From a virus (Duplodnaviria > Heunggongvirae > Uroviricota > Caudoviricetes), in the IMG/VR virus record IMGVR_UViG_2651869781_000010: a DNA stretch of 9,320 bases, one strand, 5' to 3'. Within the stretch, counting starts at the first letter, position 1. Every line of letters starts with the position of its first letter. Below the pieces are notes generated by a model. It had not been told where the DNA came from, did no database searches, and worked only from the letters and a program-made list of their open reading frames with translations. Made by a program: the position numbers and the translations under genes. Below, piece by piece: positions 1 to 9,320 of the stretch.

Positions 1-774
1 TATGTCAAAATTATCAAAATCGAAAGAATTGATTTTCTCATTAAATTCATCAAATTCCGCTTGTTTGATGCTTAATAAATCAGTTAACACCTCTTCTTCA
101 TCACCAACAAAGTTACCTACCTTTTCAATTAACTCTGATAACTTTTGTTTGTTTTTTTCTATTTCGTCACTAAGCTCATAATTACGAATTAAATTAGCAC
201 TATCAAACCCAAGCAGGTGACCTATGTATGGTTTCCAAAAAATGTGTTTTCCAATAAAATCTTTTAATCTAAATACATCAGTATAATCATCTTGCCCACG
301 CAGTGAATAGCCTAAGGCAGTCCGATAATCCCAACGCTTAATTACACTTAAATCAAAAAGTGCATCCAAACACTCTTTCGACCTCTCAAAGGGTAGCTCT
401 GGATAGTCCCATTCACTAACTGCTAAATCAGTAAAGTCTTGATGCTTCTGCTCATGTTTTATAATACTTATTTTTGTAGGTGAGGCAACTGAGCGACGAA
501 TCGTTACATAACCCCCTGAGTTAAGAGCCACTTCTAGATAAAAAACAAAACTCTCAAAAACATTAAAATTTTTAAATAAAAAATGATTTTTATTTTTTTT
601 CTTAAGTAAACAAAAATCTATTAGATCACATAATTTACTTTTCCCTAAATTATGCGTATCTTTGCCTCTATTCTCAGAACGTCTTATTTCACCGATAACT
701 ACATTAAGCCCATCATGAAACTTTATAGGACTAAAAACATCTTTTTTATTAGAGTAAATTTTTGATAGTTTCAT
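1..774 (-). CDS. ABC/SMC-type ATPase, N-terminal 258 codons only (gene continues past window start); candidate ATPase subunit of a Lamassu/ABC-3C-like system
   Basis: Hand translation of the minus strand from ATG at 774..772 gives MKLSKIYSNKKDVFSPIKFHDGLNVVIGEIRRSENRGKDTHNLGKSKLCDLIDFCLL..., which resembles the N-terminus of OLD/ABC-family ATPases (LNVxIGE ... GKS ... LIDF). The frame stays open to position 1. The ATG overlaps the TGA of the upstream 79-aa ORF (ATGA). The P-loop is non-canonical, with about 11 extra residues between GE and GKS. This ORF is absent from the supplied track because it is truncated. Confidence 0.55.
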   Translation of the reverse strand, partial: MKLSKIYSNKKDVFSPIKFHDGLNVVIGEIRRSENRGKDTHNLGKSKLCDLIDFCLLKKKNKNHFLFKNFNVFESFVFYLEVALNSGGYVTIRRSVASPTKISIIKHEQKHQDFTDLAVSEWDYPELPFERSKECLDALFDLSVIKRWDYRTALGYSLRGQDDYTDVFRLKDFIGKHIFWKPYIGHLLGFDSANLIRNYELSDEIEKNKQKLSELIEKVGNFVGDEEEVLTDLLSIKQAEFDEFNEKINSFDFDNFDI

Positions 775-1010
775 TTTTTAACCCACTCAATCAAATCATT
801 TTTAGAATGATATTCGATCAGACCTAATAAATATAACAAACCTAGTGCGGGGTTGAATAAGGAAATAGCTCGCTCATCATATTTCTCAAGTGCATCATAA
901 AGCTCAGCATATTTACCAAATTTAGCTTTGCGTAGCTTTTTCATTAAGAATGCAGCTACCGCCAAGACGGTCAAATCTGGATGTGAATTCTTATTAGGAA
1001 GCAAGCTCAC
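771..1010 (-). CDS. small (79 aa) helical protein, candidate middle component (LmuC/ABC-3C MC-like) of the three-gene system
   Basis: ORF from the track with GTG start at 1010..1008, preceded by AGGAG (complement of 1016-1020) at about 6 nt. It overlaps the upstream gene by 17 nt and the downstream ATPase by 4 nt (ATGA), indicating translational coupling. No recognisable catalytic motif. The functional label rests on size and position only. Confidence 0.55.
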   Translation of the reverse strand: MSLLPNKNSHPDLTVLAVAAFLMKKLRKAKFGKYAELYDALEKYDERAISLFNPALGLLYLLGLIEYHSKNDLIEWVKK

Positions 1011-1941
1011 AGCTATCTCCTATATCACAATTATAATACATATAGTAAACCATTATTCTTGTTAATTTTTTATTTTTGTGCAGATCTGAATCCCTTGCAA
1101 TCAGTAGTTCAATCATCACCTCGAGAATTCGATCAAAATCATGATAATCCTTTTTATAAACACATATTTTAGCTGCAAGCTCATCTGCGCTTTCAATATA
1201 TTTTTTTTGATATGCGCTATTATCAGGATGAGATAAAAAATCCGAAATTTCAGTAATCTCAGCGATTTTTTTCTTAATAAGCTCAGCGTAACTGTTGCTT
1301 AAGTTATTTATTTTATTTTTCTGTAGAAAATCCACTCTAAAAATATGTGATGAAATAGTCTTATCTGTTAATTTACCAAGAGATGTATTTATACCTATAA
1401 TAACTTCTGCCAGTTGTTCTGGATCGATATTAATAAGCACATCGAATGGGTTAAGACCGGCCATTTCAGGCACATGTGGAAATACCTTAAAGTACCTCTC
1501 CATAGTTTCTATCCCAATCAACCCTATGTTGAATTTATCTAACCCGGTTTGGGTACTTATAAAATCCAGAATGTTTTTATTTGCCTCAGCAGGTAGTCGT
1601 CTATTGGCAAACAACAAATAATTATTAATTTTATCTTCATCAATTAATTTTTGTATTTTTGGTAATTCTACATTCAAAACTGAGGTTGTATTACCAAAGA
1701 AATCAGCATCAGAAAATTTTCTGTTATGATTTATAGTATGCTTAGCCTGTATTATGGTTAAACCATCCCATGGCCTGGCTTTACTAGGGTATGCTTCAGC
1801 TACACCATCGAATCTTGAGTCACGTCCCCCATCCCGCCCATCAGCAAAGGATTGAGTTCCTATGCCTAAAAGATCATAGCAAAGGTAAACAACTAGGGTT
1901 TCAAATTGAAATGCCGATAAACTGCAGTAGTCATATTTCAT
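994..1941 (-). CDS. 315-aa protein with N-terminal Mrr-like PD-(D/E)xK nuclease motif plus a C-terminal helical domain of about 200 aa; candidate effector (LmuA-like)
   Basis: ATG at 1941..1939. The N-terminal segment ...SFADGRDGGRDSRFDG...(about 20 aa)...LTIIQAKH carries a DGGxD ... QxK pattern typical of the Mrr catalytic/restriction-endonuclease fold. It is the first gene of three overlapping genes. AT-rich codon usage matches the two downstream genes. Confidence 0.65.
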   Translation of the reverse strand: MKYDYCSLSAFQFETLVVYLCYDLLGIGTQSFADGRDGGRDSRFDGVAEAYPSKARPWDGLTIIQAKHTINHNRKFSDADFFGNTTSVLNVELPKIQKLIDEDKINNYLLFANRRLPAEANKNILDFISTQTGLDKFNIGLIGIETMERYFKVFPHVPEMAGLNPFDVLINIDPEQLAEVIIGINTSLGKLTDKTISSHIFRVDFLQKNKINNLSNSYAELIKKKIAEITEISDFLSHPDNSAYQKKYIESADELAAKICVYKKDYHDFDRILEVMIELLIARDSDLHKNKKLTRIMVYYMYYNCDIGDSCELAS

Positions 1942-1992: not shown

Positions 1993-2022
1993 ATCATATA
2001 ATTGCCACTGAAATAATTTCAA
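1993..2022 (-). promoter_or_regulatory. candidate sigma70 promoter for the cargo operon
   Basis: On the minus strand: TTGAAA (2022..2017), a 16-18 nt spacer, then TATATG/TATGAT (2000..1993), about 55 nt upstream of the ATG at 1941. Found by eye in AT-rich DNA, so a chance match is plausible. Confidence 0.3.
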
Positions 2023-2300
2023 CAATCAACTTAATACTCAAAAATTTCAATGTGTTACTTTACCGCACAATGACGCAATAAACTCTGCAAAAAATCTATA
2101 AACGCATTTTTTTTGACAACTCGCACAGCCCCGCACGCCTGCCCGCTTCGCTTAACAGACTGGTTTTCATGCACCTCATAAATCGTCTCAGAAGCCACCA
2201 CACAAGGGCTTTCTCGTCAAAAATGGTGCATAAGGCTCATGCGTTTTCATGCGCCATAGACATGCACTCATGCGCTCTCAGGCCAGCCAGGGAAAAGGTG

Positions 2301-2328
2301 TTAAAAATCCCGGTACTTGACCGGGATT
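2301..2328 (-). terminator. Rho-independent terminator candidate downstream of the ogr gene
   Basis: Perfect 9-bp inverted repeat AATCCCGGT (2306-2314) / ACCGGGATT (2320-2328) with a 5-nt loop. On the minus strand the stem is followed by TTTAA, giving an AUUUUUAA run. It lies about 20 nt after the ogr stop at 2349. Confidence 0.45.
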
Positions 2329-2348
2329 ACGTGGGCATTTTTTTCTAA

Positions 2349-2621
2349 TCAGACAGGAATCTGCTGACGGCTTGACAGTTTTGACGCGGAGCCATAGCGA
2401 TTGAGCGTTTGCTGTTGTTTTACCGGGGCTTGTGATTTGTCTGGTTCCTGTTCATTGCGCCGGGGTTTCATGATTATCTTATCCACACTCTCCAGTGCCG
2501 TAAATGTGCAGGAACATTCCAGATTCTGGCACTGATACCACGAGCGTTTAACTGACGGAGCTTCATAGGCTGCTGTTCTGGCGTGTGCAACTGTACCGCA
2601 TTCCGGACATTTAAGTGCCAT
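2349..2621 (-). CDS. ogr: Ogr/Delta-family zinc-finger late-gene transcriptional activator (90 aa from the ATG)
   Basis: MALKCPECGTVAHARTAAYEAPSVKRSWYQCQNLECSCTFTALESV... carries the exact C-x2-C-x22-C-x4-C spacing and the AHxRT / YxQCxN / TFxxxESV motifs of P2 Ogr and P4 Delta. The track ORF begins at a GTG at 2630; the ATG at 2621..2619 with AGGAG 8 nt upstream is preferred. Single-domain, not duplicated as in P4 Delta. Confidence 0.85.
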   Translation of the reverse strand: MALKCPECGTVAHARTAAYEAPSVKRSWYQCQNLECSCTFTALESVDKIIMKPRRNEQEPDKSQAPVKQQQTLNRYGSASKLSSRQQIPV

Positions 2622-2626
2622 TAATA

Positions 2627-3178
2627 TCACTCCTGTATATCGTTAATGTCATTCAGGCGTTGCTGAAAACGCAGATGTTGTGCCGGGGTGTAAGAGCCCT
2701 GGCAATCACGAATCATCCCGGGGTCTGGCATCAAACCGGATTCATCCAGGATCTCACGATAATCCCCGGCAATTTCAGGCGGTGTTATTGCCAGCTGGCG
2801 AACCAGAGCACTGCGTAATATACGGGACGCAACGTCAACCCCTCCGCGCCCCTTCAGGAACGGAGCCAGTGCAGATGTCAGGGCTGCCCCATTCGCCTGC
2901 ATAAAATTGCTGAGAGCAGCTTCTGTGCAGGCCTCCATCAATAAATGCTGCGAGTAAATGCATTCGCGAGCAGCACAGTTAATTTGCCATTTCAGCACAT
3001 CCAGACGTTCCCGCAGTAATTCGAGCTGTCGGGCATAATCTGTTGGTTTTTCTGTGGCAGCGAGGAGAGATGCTATCTGTTGTTCAACGGCTTTTCGGGT
3101 CTCACTATGTCCGGCCCACAGAATACGGGCATTCCGAAAACTGGTAAGTGCCTGGTCAGGTGTGCCTCGGGCCGTCAT
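2627..3178 (-). CDS. psu: Psu-like protein (polarity suppression / capsid decoration), 183 aa
   Basis: All-helical 183-aa protein. Segments KWQINCAARECI, FMQANGAALTSALAPFL and YTPAQHLRF resemble P4 Psu as I remember it (KWQVNQAAGRYI, FMQQHGTALAAALAPEL, FTPAQNMIF). Length is close to P4 Psu (190 aa). The ATG overlaps the stop of the upstream gene (ATGA). The comparison is from memory, not from an alignment. Confidence 0.55.
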   Translation of the reverse strand: MTARGTPDQALTSFRNARILWAGHSETRKAVEQQIASLLAATEKPTDYARQLELLRERLDVLKWQINCAARECIYSQHLLMEACTEAALSNFMQANGAALTSALAPFLKGRGGVDVASRILRSALVRQLAITPPEIAGDYREILDESGLMPDPGMIRDCQGSYTPAQHLRFQQRLNDINDIQE

Positions 3179-3918
3179 ACAGCTTTCTCCTTCTCAGCAA
3201 GTTCCTGACGAACCTTTATTTTATGCATAGCTGCCGGAGAGAGTTGATTACTGAAATCCAGACGCGCCGCATAATCCGGGGCAACTCCCGCCAGTTTAAA
3301 CACCGGGTCCTGTTCAGGCATCGCATCGTTAGCCAGAGCCGGTCTGGTGATATGTTTATGAATAAAGTCTTTCAGCACTGTGTCCGGGTCATTAACTGAA
3401 TTCACCACACCCACAACGGCACTGGCTTCCCGGCCCATTGTGGATTTAAGCAGGCTCAGCGTCTGAATAAGCGCTTTTCCATGCGACTGCATAAAATCTT
3501 CCCAGATTTGTTTTGCGCGAATATCCACAAGAATGTTATGCGCGTGGATATACTTTCCGGCTAATTCCGCAGCTTTCTGCGGCAAAAGTGCATTTTCGCT
3601 TTCCTGAGCCGCCAGCAGCTCATCAAAATCCTCAAGCGTTTCTCGTCCCAGCGCAATTTCCGTGCGCAGTTTTTTCATTTCCTTTGAGACCACGCCCTGA
3701 CTTTCACGAAACAGCGTGCGCCACTCCTCATTCAGTGTGTTCGTCGTGGCTTCCATTTCAGCGCGACGCTGGCGGATTGTCGCAATATTATCCGCTGCAG
3801 CTTTCTGCTGACGACGTGCTTCAAGCCATGCGTTTCTGGCTGTGTTCATGGTTTCCAGTGCCCGCTGCGTTACAGCCGGAAAAGTGGAAAGGTTGTTATT
3901 CACTGCGGTGTTGTTCAT
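3175..3918 (-). CDS. 247-aa coiled-coil protein, putative Sid-like capsid size-determination scaffold (assigned by size and position only)
   Basis: ATG at 3918..3916 with AGGAG 6 nt upstream. Helical, charged, Ala/Glu/Arg-rich sequence. It is the first gene of the late operon directly behind the Ogr-type promoter, and P4 Sid is 244 aa. No sequence motif was recognised. Confidence 0.4.
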   Translation of the reverse strand: MNNTAVNNNLSTFPAVTQRALETMNTARNAWLEARRQQKAAADNIATIRQRRAEMEATTNTLNEEWRTLFRESQGVVSKEMKKLRTEIALGRETLEDFDELLAAQESENALLPQKAAELAGKYIHAHNILVDIRAKQIWEDFMQSHGKALIQTLSLLKSTMGREASAVVGVVNSVNDPDTVLKDFIHKHITRPALANDAMPEQDPVFKLAGVAPDYAARLDFSNQLSPAAMHKIKVRQELAEKEKAV

Positions 3919-3952
3919 GACTTCTCCTGTCGGGTTGGTTCGTTACGTCAAT

Positions 3953-4008
3953 TGTGTCGTGGCTGACACAAGCACACTATCGGTGCTCAGTGTGTGGTGG
4001 CTGGCACA
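3953..4008 (-). promoter_or_regulatory. late promoter with two Ogr/Delta-type TGT-N12-ACA dyads (Psid-like)
   Basis: TGTGTCGTGGCTGACACA (3953-3970) and TGTGTGGTGGCTGGCACA (3991-4008) are near-identical, with centres 38 bp apart, and lie 35-90 bp upstream of the ATG at 3918. P2/P4 late promoters use a TGT-N12-ACA activator site centred near -55, and P4 late promoters have a second promoter-proximal site. Confidence 0.6.
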
Positions 4009-4096
4009 ACGGACGCTTGCGGTTATTCAGACGTGGCTATGAAAGCCAGCCAGATAAAAATACCCTCTGTTTCAGTCTGCTTTATGTCCCTGATGC

Positions 4097-4292
4097 GGTG
4101 GAACAGGTGAAACATGTGTTACTGCTTTGTTTTATAAAGCATTTATATACACTGCACCGGTGGAACATCGCGGGTAACAAGGTGGAACAGCGGATTGGCT
4201 GGCGTTACATCTGTTCCACCTCACTATTTCAGAAGGTGGAACAGGTTCAGCCCTGTAAAATACGGTTGTTCCACCTGTTTCACCTGTTACCC
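4097..4292. repeat. iteron cluster, candidate ori/crr-like replication element bound by the primase
   Basis: GGTGGAACA at 4097-4105, 4159-4167, 4181-4189 and 4235-4243. Variant GGTGAAACA at 4106-4114. Inverse copies TGTTCCACC at 4212-4220 and 4267-4275, and TGTTTCACC at 4276-4284. Close to the P4 alpha-binding octamer TGTTCACC. Located in the 400-bp non-coding gap immediately 3' of the primase gene. Confidence 0.7.
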
Positions 4293-4318
4293 TTAATAAA
4301 TAAGACTCACGCAAAGCC

Positions 4319-6991
4319 TTAACCCGGCACCTCGCTGTTGAAGACATAGAGCCTGCGGGGATTCATCTCTGGCGGGCGAATGGTTGTCTGGAGTTTGCCA
4401 TCAGTGGAGGGCAGCAGGTATCCACGATCTACGCACAGACGCGCCACCTTGCGCGGGTCAAATCCCCTGCAGATTTCTTTCCAGCCGGACGGCATGACAT
4501 AGAACGTAGTGACAGCTTCCGTGCCCTGCGCGGTACTGCCTTTCTCCACCCTGCGCCAGCCCACCATATTGCCGGGGCGGTTGCGCTCGTCATACCAGTC
4601 TGCAAAGCGGCTGTACTGATTCGCGGTAAAGAAACTGCGAACCTGCTCCAGTGCGGCGATATCTTCCTGATTGGCGGTGTGCCCGCGATCTTTCAGCCAT
4701 GCGTTCAGGCAGACGCGGGTTGCCCGCAGTGCTTCACCCTCAGGCCAGCCGGTGATACCCAGACGGGTTGCCAGTTCACCTGCCATCGCCACCAGTGCAA
4801 AGCGGTTCACAGCCCGGCCCACCTGATTGCCTGCATCTTTAGGAGTCAGGGCGGCAGCATATTCCTTCATCAGCGATTTTGCCTGTGCCGTTAGTCCGTT
4901 AAGATCAGCGGTCAGTGCTTTCAGCCACTCCCGGAACGGCGAACCGTAGTAGCAGGACGTGGCCCATTCAAGATGCTCTGCCAGAGCCTTGCCGCTGTCG
5001 AAGCCGTGCAGCTCCTCAAAAACGCCAAACTTCCCGGAATCGCTTGGGATCTGGATCATCCTGACTTCCATCCCGGCAAAAGTACGCTCACCGGCCTTTG
5101 CCGCATGTTCGGTCAGAGACAACTCGCCAGTTGAAAAGAACAACAGGCGCCACTGCTTACGGGTACGCAGCTCACCGTCCGTACCGGCACGGCCCTTGCC
5201 CTGACCGTTTGCCAGCATGTAGGCGATATTGCCTGCCTCGCGTCCGTCAACTTCCCGGATCTCATCAAGCATCATGGCGGCATCGTTGCGGCGGCTGGCG
5301 CATCCCTCCAGCGCGTTGCCGGTGGCCCGCCATGTCTGCCAGTAGTCAGGCCCGCCGCAGACGGAGGTTGCCGCTTTCATGGTGGTGGTCTTACCGTCTG
5401 TCGATTCCCCTTTTAGGTGGTAGCCGCCGCCGTCCATACCAACCAGCCGTAACAGTGGTGCAGCAAAGGCCAGGCTGACAGCAAATGCCACGCGGGAGTT
5501 GCCGGTACAGTAGCGGGATACATGCTCCCGCCATTCCTCTGTTGTGCCCGACACGCGGAAATCACGCCCCTGCACGGAAGTGGTCTGGAGAATGACACCC
5601 TCTGCACCTTCACCGCTGACCTCATCCTGCAGGACGTAAACCTGACCATGCCAGCCAGTACGACTGACGCAGGTCACGCGGCGTTCCGGTTTACACAGTG
5701 AGATATATTCCATCAGGCGTGCGCGTGCCTCACCGGTGGTGCTGATATAAGACAGCCCGTTAACCAGCAGTACCCGGCGCAGTTCCTCACCACTGCCGCT
5801 CAGCATTTCCATCGGCATCGCCCAGCGGCGACACTCACCCCACGTATCTTCCCATTCCAGCAGTCGTCCGAAGTTACCGCCATCGGCATCGCAGGTGATT
5901 GCCGTCACGCGCAGCGGGCTGCATATTTTGACGTTCTGGATCTCCGTCTCACCGTTGCGCTGTACCTGCTTTTCATACCAGAGATATTCCTGGGTAAGAC
6001 GGAACCCGTGCGGCAGTTGCGTGCGGCCTTCCCCGCACAGTACCAGACCGTTGCGAAAGGCTTCACGGGCACGGGTAATACCGTGCTCCCGATGAAAGTC
6101 ATTCCAGTCAGCCTTAATCTCTCCTGGTGGCAGGGTCATCCAGCCGCCAACAGCTTTTGCCGCCCGTTCAGCAAAGGCTCTGCCGGGATTCTCACCCCCG
6201 TCCTGAAAATCGTTATCACCGGCGATGATAATTTTTACCTCAGGCCAGCGTGCCCGCAGCGACTGCGCCACATTGGGCAGGTTGCCCGCAGATATGGCAG
6301 CCACTACGCATCCGGCAGTGAGCTGGCTTACCGTCAGCGCCGTAGCGTAACCTTCGGTAATCACCACCTGTACCGGTGGTTCAGACGGTAACGGGCTGAG
6401 CGACACAAACGCGCCTTTCATCGTGCTGCCGGGCAGTATGCTTTTTTCACCCGTCGGGGCGATAAGCTGTGCACCGGTCACGGCTCCGGTGTTGGTCGTG
6501 AGTGGTAACAGCAGGGAACCGGTAGGAAAATCCTTACCGCTGATATGCTGCACGCTTCCGGTCAGAGAGGCCGGGTATCCGGCGAACCCTTTTCCTGTCA
6601 GATAGGCGCTTTCTCCCGTGTGGCTCTCTTTCATCAGCGCCGCCACGGTAAGACCCATGTCGCGTTTAGGGGCTTTTTGTCTGGCAGGCTTAACAGGCAG
6701 TTCCTGCACATCCGGCACATTAAGCACCTGCGCCACCTCCTGCGCAGCCTTTCTGACGCTGTAACCGGTTACGAGCTTAACCAGATCCAGACCGTCACCA
6801 TTGCCACACTGGCTGCAGATCCACGTCCCGCGCCCGTCAAGGTCATCAAGGCGAAAACGATCCTTGCCCCCACATTTCGGGCAGGGACCGTGCCTGCCGT
6901 TTTCAGGTACATCAATACGCAGCATCTGCAGAATAACGGGCCATTTCCCCCGTGCGGCGGCTGAAATCTGCGTAACCGTCTGTATTGTCAT
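4319..6991 (-). CDS. P4 alpha-like primase/helicase (N-terminal zinc ribbon, TOPRIM primase domain, SF3/D5-type P-loop NTPase), 890 aa
   Basis: CPKCGG...CSQCG zinc ribbon near the N-terminus. VVITEGYATALT and IIAGDNDFQDGGENPG are TOPRIM acidic motifs. Walker A GESTDGKTT lies mid-protein. The ATG at 6991 overlaps the upstream stop (ATGA) and has a GAGGGGG Shine-Dalgarno sequence. The iterons lie just downstream. Confidence 0.9.
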   Translation of the reverse strand: MTIQTVTQISAAARGKWPVILQMLRIDVPENGRHGPCPKCGGKDRFRLDDLDGRGTWICSQCGNGDGLDLVKLVTGYSVRKAAQEVAQVLNVPDVQELPVKPARQKAPKRDMGLTVAALMKESHTGESAYLTGKGFAGYPASLTGSVQHISGKDFPTGSLLLPLTTNTGAVTGAQLIAPTGEKSILPGSTMKGAFVSLSPLPSEPPVQVVITEGYATALTVSQLTAGCVVAAISAGNLPNVAQSLRARWPEVKIIIAGDNDFQDGGENPGRAFAERAAKAVGGWMTLPPGEIKADWNDFHREHGITRAREAFRNGLVLCGEGRTQLPHGFRLTQEYLWYEKQVQRNGETEIQNVKICSPLRVTAITCDADGGNFGRLLEWEDTWGECRRWAMPMEMLSGSGEELRRVLLVNGLSYISTTGEARARLMEYISLCKPERRVTCVSRTGWHGQVYVLQDEVSGEGAEGVILQTTSVQGRDFRVSGTTEEWREHVSRYCTGNSRVAFAVSLAFAAPLLRLVGMDGGGYHLKGESTDGKTTTMKAATSVCGGPDYWQTWRATGNALEGCASRRNDAAMMLDEIREVDGREAGNIAYMLANGQGKGRAGTDGELRTRKQWRLLFFSTGELSLTEHAAKAGERTFAGMEVRMIQIPSDSGKFGVFEELHGFDSGKALAEHLEWATSCYYGSPFREWLKALTADLNGLTAQAKSLMKEYAAALTPKDAGNQVGRAVNRFALVAMAGELATRLGITGWPEGEALRATRVCLNAWLKDRGHTANQEDIAALEQVRSFFTANQYSRFADWYDERNRPGNMVGWRRVEKGSTAQGTEAVTTFYVMPSGWKEICRGFDPRKVARLCVDRGYLLPSTDGKLQTTIRPPEMNPRRLYVFNSEVPG

Positions 6992-7371
6992 ACTTCCCCC
7001 TCATACAACGTCACACCGGTACTGCAGAAGTCATCAAAGGCCGCCGGAAGCGTGCGGTACATCTCCGCCATCACTTCACAGCCGCGCGCGGTCAGTACCG
7101 GCGGCGCGGTCAGCAGTGATGGCTCCAGCATGTCAGTCAGCAGTGCCAGCGCGGCAGCGGCGCCCTGCACTTCGCCGTACTCGTTAATCAGTACGCACTC
7201 GATATGCAGCGCAATGGCCATTTCAATACGCTCCACCGTCAGGCTGTGCGGACCATACTGATCACTGCCAGTTTCGTTCAGCATTTTCTGCCGCCATGCT
7301 GAAGCAATAGCCCGCCGGTAAAGCGCGGTGGTCATTTCTACCGGGAAAATGGAAACCTGCGGCTGGTTCAT
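6988..7371 (-). CDS. hypothetical protein (127 aa), primase-operon gene
   Basis: ORF with ATG at 7371..7369, AAGGAGG upstream, and 4-nt ATGA overlaps with both neighbours. GC-rich codon usage matches the primase. No motif recognised. Confidence 0.6.
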   Translation of the reverse strand: MNQPQVSIFPVEMTTALYRRAIASAWRQKMLNETGSDQYGPHSLTVERIEMAIALHIECVLINEYGEVQGAAAALALLTDMLEPSLLTAPPVLTARGCEVMAEMYRTLPAAFDDFCSTGVTLYEGEV

Positions 7372-7652
7372 CTGGCACCTCCTTCAATCAGTGCGCAGCT
7401 GTGTGCAATATCCGTCAAATCTGCCAGCAGGTACTCCATCAGCGCGGCGACACCATGCGCACAGCCAGCGTCCAGTGCTCCGGCCTGAGACGGGTATTCA
7501 GAAAAGAGAAGCTGGAGCATGTCGCAGGCATTTTTTGCGCGGGTCAGCTTTCCGAAACTGTCCTCTGACAACCCATAGGCAAAAGCACCGGTATTGTGTT
7601 TTTCAGGCAAAGTGTGGCCCTGAGCACCGTTGTGCCCGTTTGAAATATTCAT
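7368..7652 (-). CDS. hypothetical protein (94 aa), primase-operon gene (position and size reminiscent of P4 epsilon, unverified)
   Basis: ATG at 7652..7650 with GGAG 9 nt upstream. The stop overlaps the next ATG. No motif recognised. Confidence 0.55.
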   Translation of the reverse strand: MNISNGHNGAQGHTLPEKHNTGAFAYGLSEDSFGKLTRAKNACDMLQLLFSEYPSQAGALDAGCAHGVAALMEYLLADLTDIAHSCALIEGGAR

Positions 7653-7683
7653 CGTGGATTACTCCGTTTTCAGCGGTATTTTG

Positions 7684-8043
7684 TCAGAGAAACTTTGAAT
7701 AGTGACCGTCGTCAGGCTCAGCAGAACGCCATATGCTACGCTCCCGCCAGCGGATAAATAGCACAGACGGATGCAGTGTCAGCGGGCCGGAACCACTACC
7801 GCCTGCAGGAGCTGGTGCAGGCTTAAAGAGCGGTACATCAAACAGGCGCGTATACCGCTGTTCAAACCATGCCAGAGGGCAGGAAGAAAGCTGGTTGTCG
7901 CTGTCATGACGTATCAGCACTTCACAGCTGAATTCAGGATTAACCAGCGCCACAGAGGGCGAGGCTTTAATTAATCGGATAATCGTGACCGTCCAGCCAC
8001 GTTCATGCTGCCAGCGTTCGCCGGGTTGCGGATAATTACGCAT
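7684..8043 (-). CDS. hypothetical protein (119 aa from the ATG), primase-operon gene
   Basis: The track ORF starts at a TTG at 8073. The ATG at 8043..8041 (MRNYPQPGERW...) with GGAGG 5-6 nt upstream is preferred. Contains a Pro/Gly-rich linker (KPAPAPAGGSGSGP). Confidence 0.55.
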   Translation of the reverse strand: MRNYPQPGERWQHERGWTVTIIRLIKASPSVALVNPEFSCEVLIRHDSDNQLSSCPLAWFEQRYTRLFDVPLFKPAPAPAGGSGSGPLTLHPSVLFIRWRERSIWRSAEPDDGHYSKFL

Positions 8044-8212
8044 GTTCACCTCCGCAGGGAATGCGCCCGGCAAAGCTCAGTACATAGTCCGGGGCAAGTC
8101 TGCGCCGCGCTGATCGCTCGTTATCTGCGGTGATCCTTAACATCACCGGACGGGCATTACGTTGACTGCGGTTGATCGCCGCAAATAACCAGGTACACTT
8201 CTCTTTAGCCAT
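8036..8212 (-). CDS. small hypothetical protein (58 aa), first ORF of the primase operon
   Basis: ATG at 8212..8210 with GAGG 9 nt upstream. Translates as MAKEKCTWLFAAINRSQRNARPVMLRITADNERSARRRLAPDYVLSFAGRIPCGGEHA. Its TAA (8038..8036) overlaps the ATG of the next gene by 8 nt. It is the 3' part of the 244-aa track ORF 8036..8770, whose upstream portion looks spurious. Confidence 0.35.
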   Translation of the reverse strand: MAKEKCTWLFAAINRSQRNARPVMLRITADNERSARRRLAPDYVLSFAGRIPCGGEHA

Positions 8213-8287
8213 CTTCGTTGCCTCATATAGCGGTTTGGTCAGAAGCCCGGTTAGTGTTGCTGCACTGTCGGGCTTCGCACTCACAAG

Positions 8288-8380
8288 GTGAATCGCACCT
8301 TCACTTTTAAAGCTACCCTTAAGTGAATCGCACTTCAAGTCTTTTATTATCATTTTTTTTGCGTATACTGAATCGCACCT
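8288..8380. promoter_or_regulatory. divergent control region: three direct repeats (candidate operators) plus the -10 element of the plus-strand regulator gene
   Basis: GTGAATCGCACCT (8288-8300), GTGAATCGCACTT (8323-8335) and CTGAATCGCACCT (8368-8380). The third overlaps a TATACT -10 (8364-8369) located 30 nt upstream of the ATG at 8400, which has AAGGAG at 8386-8391. The region separates the primase operon (minus) from the RHH-like gene (plus). Confidence 0.5.
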
Positions 8381-8399
8381 AACGCAAGGAGATCCAGTA

Positions 8400-8585
8400 A
8401 TGGCAACGGGTTCAACTAACAACAAGTCGCAGCAACTTAATGCTCGTTTCCCACATGATGTAGTTGCAGAATTAGAAAGCAACCTTGAAGATGGGGAAAC
8501 GAAAGCGCAATTTATTGTTACCGCTGTAAAAGGCGAGATTAAACGCCGACAGCGCAGGAAAAATAAGCTAGAGCAAGTAAGCTGA
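8400..8585 (+). CDS. small DNA-binding regulator, probably ribbon-helix-helix type (61 aa)
   Basis: ATG at 8400 with AAGGAG 8 nt upstream. The segment QLNARFPHDVVAELESNLEDGETKAQFIVTAVKGEI has a strand-helix-helix pattern typical of Arc/CopG-like proteins, followed by a basic tail (KRRQRRKNK). A terminator follows. Confidence 0.55.
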   Translation: MATGSTNNKSQQLNARFPHDVVAELESNLEDGETKAQFIVTAVKGEIKRRQRRKNKLEQVS

Positions 8586-8648
8586 ATAGAGAAGCGAATA
8601 GACGTTCTCTCAGATTCCATGCTAATTTCAGTAAGCGACAATATTTTT

Positions 8649-8680
8649 AAGCCCACAAACTCATTTTGTCGGGCTTTTTT
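8649..8680 (+). terminator. Rho-independent terminator after the RHH-like gene
   Basis: Stem AAGCCCACA (8649-8657) / TGTcGGGCTT (8667-8676) with a one-base bulge and a 9-nt loop, followed by a T-run (8675-8680). It sits between the convergent RHH-like and AlpA-like genes. Confidence 0.5.
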
Positions 8681-8681
8681 A

Positions 8682-8912
8682 TTAGTGATTTTCATGCCGT
8701 TCACCACGAGAGGCATATATTTGCTCTTGAATCCAGTGATCGACTTCGCTTTCAACAAATGAAATTGCACGAGTTCCTATTTTCACCGGGCGGGGAAATG
8801 TATTGTTTGAAAGCTGTTTGTAAAGCCATGCCTTGCTACGCTGAACGCGTCTTAACACCTCTTTTGCTGAGATAAGGGTCTGATTCTCTGAAAGGTTGTT
8901 TGCATATTCCAT
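8682..8912 (-). CDS. alpA: AlpA/Vis-family phage transcriptional regulator / excisionase-like protein (76 aa from the ATG)
   Basis: ISAKEVLRRVQRSKAWLYKQLSNNTFPRPVKIGTRAISFVESEVDHWIQEQI matches the AlpA/Vis helix-turn-helix signature (...S.STIYR....G.FP.PIKLG.R...W...E...WI). The track ORF begins at a GTG at 8957. The ATG at 8912..8910 with GGAG 8 nt upstream is preferred. Confidence 0.8.
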   Translation of the reverse strand: MEYANNLSENQTLISAKEVLRRVQRSKAWLYKQLSNNTFPRPVKIGTRAISFVESEVDHWIQEQIYASRGERHENH

Positions 8913-9193
8913 CTTGTTACTCCGTGTTCTGCTTAAGTTCACGGTGACTTTAAACACTGAAAAAAAGTCATTCTAGTGATAATGGAATCTATTAAGACAA
9001 ACACTGATTCTATTGAAATGTGATGATTTCCACTGAAAAAAAAGAAACGATATTCATATGAAAGAACACAAGAAGAAGGAAATGCACAAATATAAAATCA
9101 ATAAAATTCATATAGATAGGATGAAAAATCAAAAAAATCATACGTCAAAAGGTATTATTACGTATTATCGATTCATATTACTCAGGAATTACC

Positions 9194-9248
9194 ACAGTAT
9201 TACACTGTATTACCCCCTATAGCCCCTTAGAGCCTCTTGTAGCCCCTT
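9194..9248. repeat. two sets of tandem decamer-scale direct repeats in the AT-rich region upstream of alpA
   Basis: ACAGTATTAC (9194-9203) directly followed by ACTGTATTAC (9204-9213). Then TAGCCCCTT (9220-9228), a degenerate copy AGAGCCTCTT (9229-9238) and TAGCCCCTT (9240-9248) with roughly 10-bp periodicity. Confidence 0.4.
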
Positions 9249-9320
9249 CTAATGAGAGATATACAGAAAGTAATTAATAAATTCACTCTCCGTATTTTAT
9301 AATGTCTTTACCCAACTTTA

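Follow-up and report, generated by a model that had tools for sequence, protein, structure and literature searches.

We have identified, at the left edge of a 9,320-nucleotide stretch of viral DNA (Caudoviricetes; IMG/VR record IMGVR_UViG_2651869781_000010), the gene of a YydD/DUF2326-type ATPase of the ATP-binding cassette (ABC) class whose P-loop is enlarged by 10 residues. The whole stretch, at its full length, is called the window below. With a probability of about 0.8, nucleotides (nt) 580-774 encode the start of the head of an ATPase with an SMC (structural maintenance of chromosomes)/Rad50 fold, which would be the LmuB-equivalent sensor of an ABC-3C (ABC-three-component; type II Lamassu-like) anti-phage operon carried as cargo of a P4-like hotspot. 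Each of the three operon genes falls into a catalogued ABC-3C family, and the loop is genuine and shared throughout its family. The original prediction, which was made from the letters of the sequence, had flagged the segment as an oddity. It is neither an error nor a double P-loop, and the locus reads as an ABC-3C/Lamassu-like defence operon in a P4-like satellite hotspot.

The open reading frame (ORF) of the ATPase starts with the ATG at 774-772 on the minus strand and is continuous to the left edge of the window; a full-length homologue has 595 amino acids (aa). Translation of 580-774 on the minus strand gives exactly residues 1-65 of the ATPase, MKLSKIYSNKKDVFSPIKFHDGLNVVIGEIRRSENRGKDTHNLGKSKLCDLIDFCLLKKKNKNHF, in which the 14 residues IRRSENRGKDTHNL separate G28-E29 from G44-K45-S46, just as the original prediction had counted. 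The prediction had further held that the loop preceding GKS exceeds in length that of standard ABC ATPases, by an insertion of about 11 residues. The loop is longer, and the insertion is real, but the true difference by profile-profile alignment is 10 residues, relative to solved LmuB, SbcC and near-canonical relatives alike. When the main family was aligned with the near-canonical relatives using hhalign (probability 99.6%, E 3.9e-24), a clean 10-column gap was found: NVIIG pairs with NFILS, the ten extra residues E29-K38 follow, and DTHNLGKS pairs with SNNGVGKS. The same gap appears in a MAFFT alignment with E. coli SbcC, a canonical Lamassu variant and Salmonella LmuB (9hqu_A), the last being one of the comparisons that had been proposed together with structure modelling. 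The AlphaFold2 (AF2) model of a 78%-identical homologue (P0116; mean predicted local distance difference test score, pLDDT, 88) has an SMC/Rad50-type head in which residues 30-44 are a loop containing a short helical turn (pLDDT ~72) and a helix begins at 45.

The length of the segment is conserved along with its motif. N24 and G44 are spaced by 20 residues in 217 of the 227 homologues, and of 132 sequences representing 50%-identity clusters 109 share this spacing (range 11-24), a constancy far beyond chance. Residues 28-46 are gap-free in all 118 full-length homologues (39-78% identity). Throughout those 118 sequences D39, H41, N42, L43, G44 and K45 never vary, and S or T fills position 46; H41, G44 and K45 likewise show 100% conservation among the 109 cluster representatives that have the standard spacing. 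The insertion itself has the charged consensus EIRLPENxxK. Compared with GxxGxGK[ST], the family Walker A has Asp and Asn in place of the first and second glycines, and His in place of the Asn typical of SMC-type P-loops. By these alignments the 10-residue loop is a derived trait of conserved length that marks the main DUF2326 clade; a Campylobacterota sister group, solved LmuB and SbcC lack it. The original prediction had allowed for the insertion being a conserved, known feature of a characterised family; conserved it is, and the family is catalogued (DUF2326, YydD, ABC-3C), though not experimentally characterised. The insertion is described nowhere in the accessible literature on DUF2326, YydD and LmuB, a coverage to which the defining ABC-3C paper does not belong.

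The clade is large, with 569 clusters at 50% identity at E<=1e-30 and 2265 at E<=1e-3. The insertion, the motif DxHNLGK[ST] and the Walker B ending HDG are traits of its main part and are absent from the Campylobacterota-centred subgroup, which reads INFILS-xDHSVGKS without extra residues. The near-canonical relatives (357-362 aa) carry SNNGVGKS and match Pfam AAA_23/SMC_N. A graded series was observed (P0234-P0307, P0279-P0288) that runs from SNNGVGKS (357-362 aa) through DHSVGKS with no insertion and with FDS (~560 aa, mostly Campylobacterota) and ATGxKPHSVGKT with three extra residues and HDG (582 aa) to the main clade with 10 extra residues and HDG or HDD.

The signature motif, Walker B and D-loop fall beyond the window and were read from the E. 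coli homologue (595 aa), which is identical to the window protein at 252 of the 258 shared positions, without a difference in residues 1-69. In the signature-like motif T491-S-E-S-D-G496-H-S-Y, T491, G496 and Y499 are invariant and the other positions are 58-80% conserved. The Walker B reads F-I-Y-H526-D527-G528, with H526, D527 and G528 invariant, as are E531 and the D-loop residue D534. In the homologue alignment no acidic residue follows the Walker B Asp, and no H-loop His is evident after Q555-Y-I-L-T559 (QYILT-LID). The original prediction had suggested a degenerate, possibly non-hydrolysing ATPase used as a sensor or scaffold, which is partly borne out by these two absences and by the characterised LmuB proteins being very slow hydrolases that use ATP binding and head engagement as their switch; the evidence for a slow or non-hydrolysing sensor lies in the C-terminal half beyond the window, however, and not in the P-loop insertion itself. 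Among 349 sequences in which both motifs could be read, Walker B is FDS in 58 of the 61 members without the insertion, and HDG or HDD in 277 of the 288 members with at least three extra residues; HDD is the form of one subclade. The presence of the insertion tracks the change of Walker B from hhhFD-S to hhhHD-G, a suggestive pattern.

The AF2 model places the ABC head in residues 1-190 and 460-595, with helices 192-440 as a long helical hairpin between them, an antiparallel coiled coil of ~270 residues. This is the SMC-like ATPase with coiled-coil insert that is looked for in ABC-3C systems; the window covers residues 1-258. In Foldseek searches the B. subtilis YydD model 9a6c_A came first (E 1.7e-20), ahead of type II LmuB chains (E 1e-11 to 1e-13). 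The fold ranking was headed by V. cholerae LmuB (9uxl_A, 24.7) and Salmonella LmuB (9hqu_A, 22.4), then came Rad50 (about 22), SbcC (20.9), SMC (19-20), PtuA (14.6) and OLD (10.4). An SMC/Rad50-like fold nearest to solved LmuB is what a Lamassu LmuB would have, and since LmuB, Rad50 and SMC outrank PtuA and OLD, the protein is an LmuB-like SMC/Rad50-fold ATPase and not an OLD-type one. Pfam DUF2326 (PF10088) matches residues 458-593 of the E. coli homologue (E 8.3e-22), a domain that lies beyond the window, and homologues are named 'YydD (DUF2326 family)' by the Joint Genome Institute (JGI). The best PADLOC model on the full length is the candidate system PDC-M68B (E 1.8e-46), and PADLOC LmuB models match the 258-aa N-terminal fragment (E 1.4e-8 to 5e-3). 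The family profiles found no LmuB in the Protein Data Bank (PDB), and for this reason the residue-level comparison with LmuB was run via the near-canonical relatives, whose profile has Salmonella LmuB as its sole PDB match (E 0.17).

The three genes form a tightly packed operon on the minus strand, with the effector (1941-994, 315 aa) followed by the middle component (1010-771, 79 aa) and the ATPase (774-1) last; the TGA stop of the middle component overlaps the ATG of the ATPase in ATGA. The ABC-3C classification is reportedly that of Krishnan et al. in 2020. Both further parts of such a system are present, namely a small middle-component gene adjoining the ATPase and an effector with a variable N-terminal and a conserved ABC-3C C-terminal domain. 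The E. coli copy is already annotated in NCBI as ABC-3C, its small gene as 'ABC-three component system middle component 8'. The N-terminal ~165 aa of the effector contain an Mrr-like PD-(D/E)xK motif read from the sequence (DGGRD ... IIQAKH). The match to Mrr_cat is below threshold (E 0.14), PADLOC models containing a restriction endonuclease (REase) match weakly, no PDB sequence match was found, and a single-sequence AF2 model was useless (pLDDT 34). A nuclease is suggested for this domain. Upstream of the effector, a consensus scan yielded two sigma-70-like sites in the region against 1.1 expected by chance, which is weak evidence for a promoter.

The operon is cargo of a P4-like satellite. 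In the literature, the P4 defence hotspot lies between psu-delta-sid and int; here the variable genes adjoin the psu-delta-sid module, and the integrase side is beyond the window. Of 5426 complete E. coli genomes, 859 have a match to the backbone (2126-9320) and 2 have one to the cargo (1-2125). The latter two are avian pathogenic E. coli (APEC) O78:H51 with the same three genes at 96% nt identity. GC content is about 0.30-0.35 in the cargo versus 0.5-0.6 in the backbone, and the boundary is sharp. The ATPase is 99% identical in a cluster of 536 Salmonella sequences (P0115), and the 78%-identical homologue that was modelled (P0116) comes from the same operon in a P4-like hotspot.

The architecture is that of the YydD/DUF2326 type of ABC-3C, given the C-terminal DUF2326 in the near-identical homologue, YydD as the best fold match, MC8 and CTD12. 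Type II (short) LmuB/DdmC (V. cholerae 9uxl/9uxh; Salmonella enterica 9hqu/9hqx) belongs to Pfam DUF3732, whereas the window ATPase belongs to DUF2326, and the family profiles have no detectable sequence match to LmuB chains. LmuB has the prototypical Walker A Gx4GK[ST] of Lamassu (GASRTGKS, K40) without an insertion; the window ATPase has Dx4GK[ST] instead (D39-x4-G44-K45-S46), after 10 extra residues. According to the Lamassu literature, Walker B is hhhhD[Q/S/T/E] in short LmuB and hhhhDD in long LmuB, both of them deviant. That of the window family, FIYH-D527-G528, is deviant as well, but of another type than in short LmuB. A further difference from type II LmuB is that the apex region of the DUF2326 ATPase showed no CxxC zinc hook. 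Because the Gx4GK[ST] motif is lacking and the deviant Walker B differs, we file the ATPase under ABC-3C/DUF2326, as a distant relative of LmuB that would work in the manner of LmuB. Type I Lamassu (Bacillus LmuA-LmuB, 9ux7) differs in having no middle component, a Cap4 (DUF4297) effector and a canonical Walker A (K37), where the window has MC8 and an Mrr-like effector. Rad50, SbcC and SMC have a canonical GxxGxGK[ST] right after the strand (SbcC: AITGPTGAGKTT), a Walker B D-E, an H-loop His, much longer coiled coils and Mre11/SbcD or kleisin partners.

By analogy with Lamassu, a mechanism can be proposed for the operon. In the Lamassu literature, LmuB dimers bind DNA ends and keep LmuA inactive, mutation of K40 costs both ATPase activity and defence, and the deviant Walker B makes hydrolysis very slow (~1 ATP per minute with DNA); engagement of the heads, driven by ATP, has been proposed to free LmuA, which tetramerises into an active nuclease. 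In the system described here, a dimer of the ATPase would hold the Mrr-like/CTD12 effector inactive and would sense DNA ends or aberrant DNA. Head engagement driven by ATP, with little or no hydrolysis, would then release the effector, and the freed effector would oligomerise, degrade DNA and abort the infection. The E29-K38 loop may be a flap, attached to position 1 of the Walker A on the rim of a remodelled pocket, that tunes ATP binding or head engagement; this role for the loop is tentative, and we rate its chances at a little short of even.

The rival explanations of the segment differ in what they make of its extra residues. A sequencing or assembly error (a frameshift or a small duplication), kept as an alternative in the original prediction, has the unusual look of the segment in its favour and nothing further. 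It is excluded by conservation: two complete E. coli genomes have exactly the same residues 1-69, and a segment of the same length recurs in hundreds of independent genomes and metagenomes with a continuous reading frame, so that an error retains a negligible probability. The prediction had also put forward two candidate Walker A sites, as GK dipeptides stand at 37-38 and at 44-45 of residues 1-65. Both lysines might then matter, with RGKD (K38) as a second phosphate-binding site or in-cis 'finger'. Position 38 is indeed K or R in about 76-85% of family members and immediately precedes the invariant D39, and a basic residue there may aid phosphate binding, yet it is not a Walker A. GK at 37-38 is found in just 8 of 227 homologues, G37 is unconserved, and many members have N, V, E, L, S or T at position 38; where the window protein has RGKD, a 97%-identical Salmonella protein has RDKD and a 78%-identical protein has RSRD. 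GK dipeptides are moreover common in this Lys-rich protein, with three in the 258-aa fragment versus 1.36 expected from composition. Because the upstream GK is unconserved and such dipeptides are common, K45 is the sole P-loop lysine as judged by conservation, in the Walker A D39-T-H-N-L-G-K45-S46; of the two candidates only L43-G44-K45-S46 is conserved, RGKD is a coincidental match, and a second working site is extremely unlikely. The protein might instead be a defence ABC ATPase of the OLD, GajA or PtuA class with the loop as a P-loop variant. These proteins, like PARIS AriA, also use an ABC head as a phage-defence sensor, in which an N-terminal strand is followed by GKS and a helix, and the OLD/ABC pattern reported by the original prediction stands as regards an ABC-type head at the N-terminus. 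Its OLD-likeness does not: PADLOC models of GajA, PtuA and OLD gave no match, LmuB, Rad50/SbcC and SMC score far higher in that order, with PtuA and OLD far behind, and in place of a head without a long coiled coil there is one split by ~270 residues of antiparallel coiled coil. Nor is there a TOPRIM or HNH fusion or partner, the neighbours being ABC-3C MC8 and CTD12 genes, and membership of that class is next to negligible.

Other alternatives concern what the pocket and the loop do. A fully degenerate, nucleotide-free protein that serves as a coiled-coil scaffold for the effector and the middle component would fit a Walker A without two of its three glycines (DxHNxGK[ST]) and with a 10-residue insertion, a Walker B HDG without the acidic catalytic residue, the lack of an evident H-loop His, and the failure of canonical ABC and P-loop hidden Markov models (HMMs) to find the N-terminus. 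Pseudo-enzymes, however, usually lose exactly the nucleotide- and Mg-binding residues, and here these are the most conserved in the protein (G44, K45, Q161, D527, D534 and G496 invariant in the 118 homologues down to 39% identity, as is S/T at 46, with H41, G44 and K45 holding also in the cluster representatives). The lost glycines were replaced by Asp and Asn, the other residues that tolerate left-handed backbone angles. LmuB, too, binds ATP and hydrolyses it slowly in spite of a deviant Walker B, and its K40 mutants are dead. Because K45, S/T46, Q161, D527, D534 and G496 are strictly conserved, the nucleotide-free scaffold is disfavoured, and we consider it very unlikely. As for the loop, it might be mainly a docking surface for MC8, the CTD12 effector or DNA rather than a modulator of the pocket. 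In the solved Lamassu complexes LmuC is seated on an LmuB head and contributes to DNA binding, and the loop is charged (EIRLPENxxK) and predicted with moderate confidence to be surface-exposed. On the other hand, an insertion-less relative has an adjoining MC6/7/8-family gene, so this partner family does not require the loop; it is Walker B that changes together with the loop; and the loop is attached directly to position 1 of the Walker A. Docking as the main role is therefore unlikely, though less so than the scaffold. Somewhere between these two in its chances, and quite doubtful, is a rewired ABC catalytic centre in the main DUF2326 clade, in which the loop, D39, H41 and H526 would stand in for the Walker B glutamate and the H-loop histidine that are missing. 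In such a centre the P-loop side would provide gamma-phosphate sensing or catalysis; alternatively, the loop would be a nucleotide-gated lid coupling DNA sensing to head engagement.

Several points weigh against reading the ATPase as the LmuB-equivalent sensor of a Lamassu-like operon. No experimental characterisation of the DUF2326 clade, biochemical or by phage assay, was found in the accessible literature. Lamassu membership rests on the fold, the operon architecture and the weak bridging match at E 0.17. PDB sequence searches with the full-length homologue and with two profiles, one of 38 full-length sequences and one of 29 heads, gave coiled-coil noise or nothing, and no ABC ATPase; neither Pfam nor NCBIfam matches the N-terminal 258 aa, of which the Pfam null counts here. 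For the 595-aa protein no PADLOC LmuB model is listed at E<=0.01, and PDC-M68B alone matches at that cut-off. The C-terminal half of the head lies beyond the window and is known from the homologue described above. A pocket that has Gly following the Walker B Asp, has lost two of three Walker A glycines and lacks the H-loop His may not hydrolyse ATP, or even bind it tightly. The link between insertion and Walker B may come from a single ancestral event and not from functional coupling, and is suggestive rather than statistical proof. Placement of the loop on the rim of the pocket would follow from P-loop topology, in a part of the model of moderate confidence (~72). The handling of the coiled coil by HMMER (bias and composition) may be why the LmuB models miss the full length.

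Coordinates of the features described, and of the satellite genes identified in the window, are collected in Table 1.

Table 1. Positions of the defence operon, its P-loop elements and the satellite backbone in the 9,320-nt window
Feature	Position	Strand	Basis or remark
ATPase, 5' part	1..774	-	First 258 codons of a YydD/DUF2326-type SMC-like ABC ATPase, putative LmuB equivalent; gene cut by the left edge of the window
Likely Q-loop R159-G-Q161	292..300	-	R159 and Q161 invariant; assigned from position in the ABC fold
Walker A lysine K45 codon	640-642	-	
Deviant Walker A D39-T-H41-N42-L43-G44-K45-S46 (family motif DxHNLGK[ST])	637..660	-	Conservation, alignment to SNNGVGKS and GASRTGKS; model helix from 45
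10-residue insertion E29-K38 (EIRRSENRGK), with coincidental G37-K38	661..690	-	hhalign gap, MAFFT gap, conserved length, loop in model
Core beta-strand L23-E29 (LNVVIGE), leading into the P-loop region	688..708	-	DSSP on model: strand 22-29; N24 invariant, V25 >90% conserved
ABC-3C middle component, 79 aa, putative LmuC equivalent	771..1010	-	Pfam MC8 E 1.7e-14 (above gathering score), MC6 E 1.9e-10
Effector, 315 aa, putative LmuA equivalent	994..1941	-	C-terminal half ABC-3C CTD12, Pfam E 4.6e-51; 17-nt overlap with MC8 gene
Sigma-70-like promoter candidate TTGAAA-18-TATGAT	1993..2022	-	~50 nt upstream of effector start; consensus scan 10/12
P4-like satellite backbone	2126..9320	.	Pfam matches
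Ogr/Delta	2349-2630	-	Pfam
Psu, 183 aa	2627-3178	-	Pfam E 2e-44
Psu-like, 247 aa	3175-3918	-	Weaker Psu match, E 1.8e-9
Primase (Zn-ribbon, TOPRIM, DUF927)	4319-6991	-	Pfam
DUF5375	6988-7371	-	Pfam
AlpA	8682-8957	-	Pfam

Within the backbone, the Psu-like gene occupies the position of sid in P4 and is annotated elsewhere as a 'septation initiation protein'. The Pfam scan of the backbone left out the ORF at 8036-8770(-), which has 244 aa, a GTG start and a low-complexity Ser/Cys-rich sequence; it overlaps a 61-aa ORF at 8400-8585(+) and the AlpA region and is probably not a real gene.

Three observations were made on relatives outside the window. In a DUF2326-family protein of 610 aa (P0348) the P-loop segment appears to be duplicated in tandem (...GEKQHNLGKTKLGELLVASDLKGEKQHNLGKTKLGELLDF): HNLGKT occurs twice, at a distance of 22 residues; the duplication may be real or an assembly artefact. 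On a Logan contig (ERR7528916; L003), an insertion-less ATPase (P0234) and an MC6/7/8-like gene lie inside a prophage, surrounded by GemA, Mu F-like, HK97 gp10-like, terminase, portal and P2-type capsid genes. The arrangement points to an ABC-3C system carried by a phage, in which the upstream candidate effector is very short (176 aa). A locus called 'Lamassu-var' (L002; NZ_CP038295.1 4117199-4120474), of the psu-delta/int hotspot type, encodes a 394-aa N-terminal half with GGSDSGKT and a 188-aa C-terminal half with Walker B FVVLDSP. It is the P4-type hotspot system whose activity was shown by experiment (PMC11754643). As evidence for the DUF2326 family, this locus was rejected, being another ABC-3C type (MC2, split ATPase, canonical GGSDSGKT).

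For annotation, the lesson is that standard P-loop and ABC HMMs miss an N-terminus of this kind. For the family, the ATPase represents an LmuB-like clade whose nucleotide pocket differs systematically from those of the solved Lamassu ATPases, by a 10-residue loop, DxHNLGK[ST] and HDG. The rewired catalytic centre, if true, would be an active-site arrangement of ABC ATPases undescribed for SMC, Rad50 or LmuB proteins. How ATP binding as opposed to hydrolysis gates the release of a Lamassu-type effector is left open by the Lamassu structure papers, and the natural forms with 0, 3 and 10 extra residues are ready constructs for this question.

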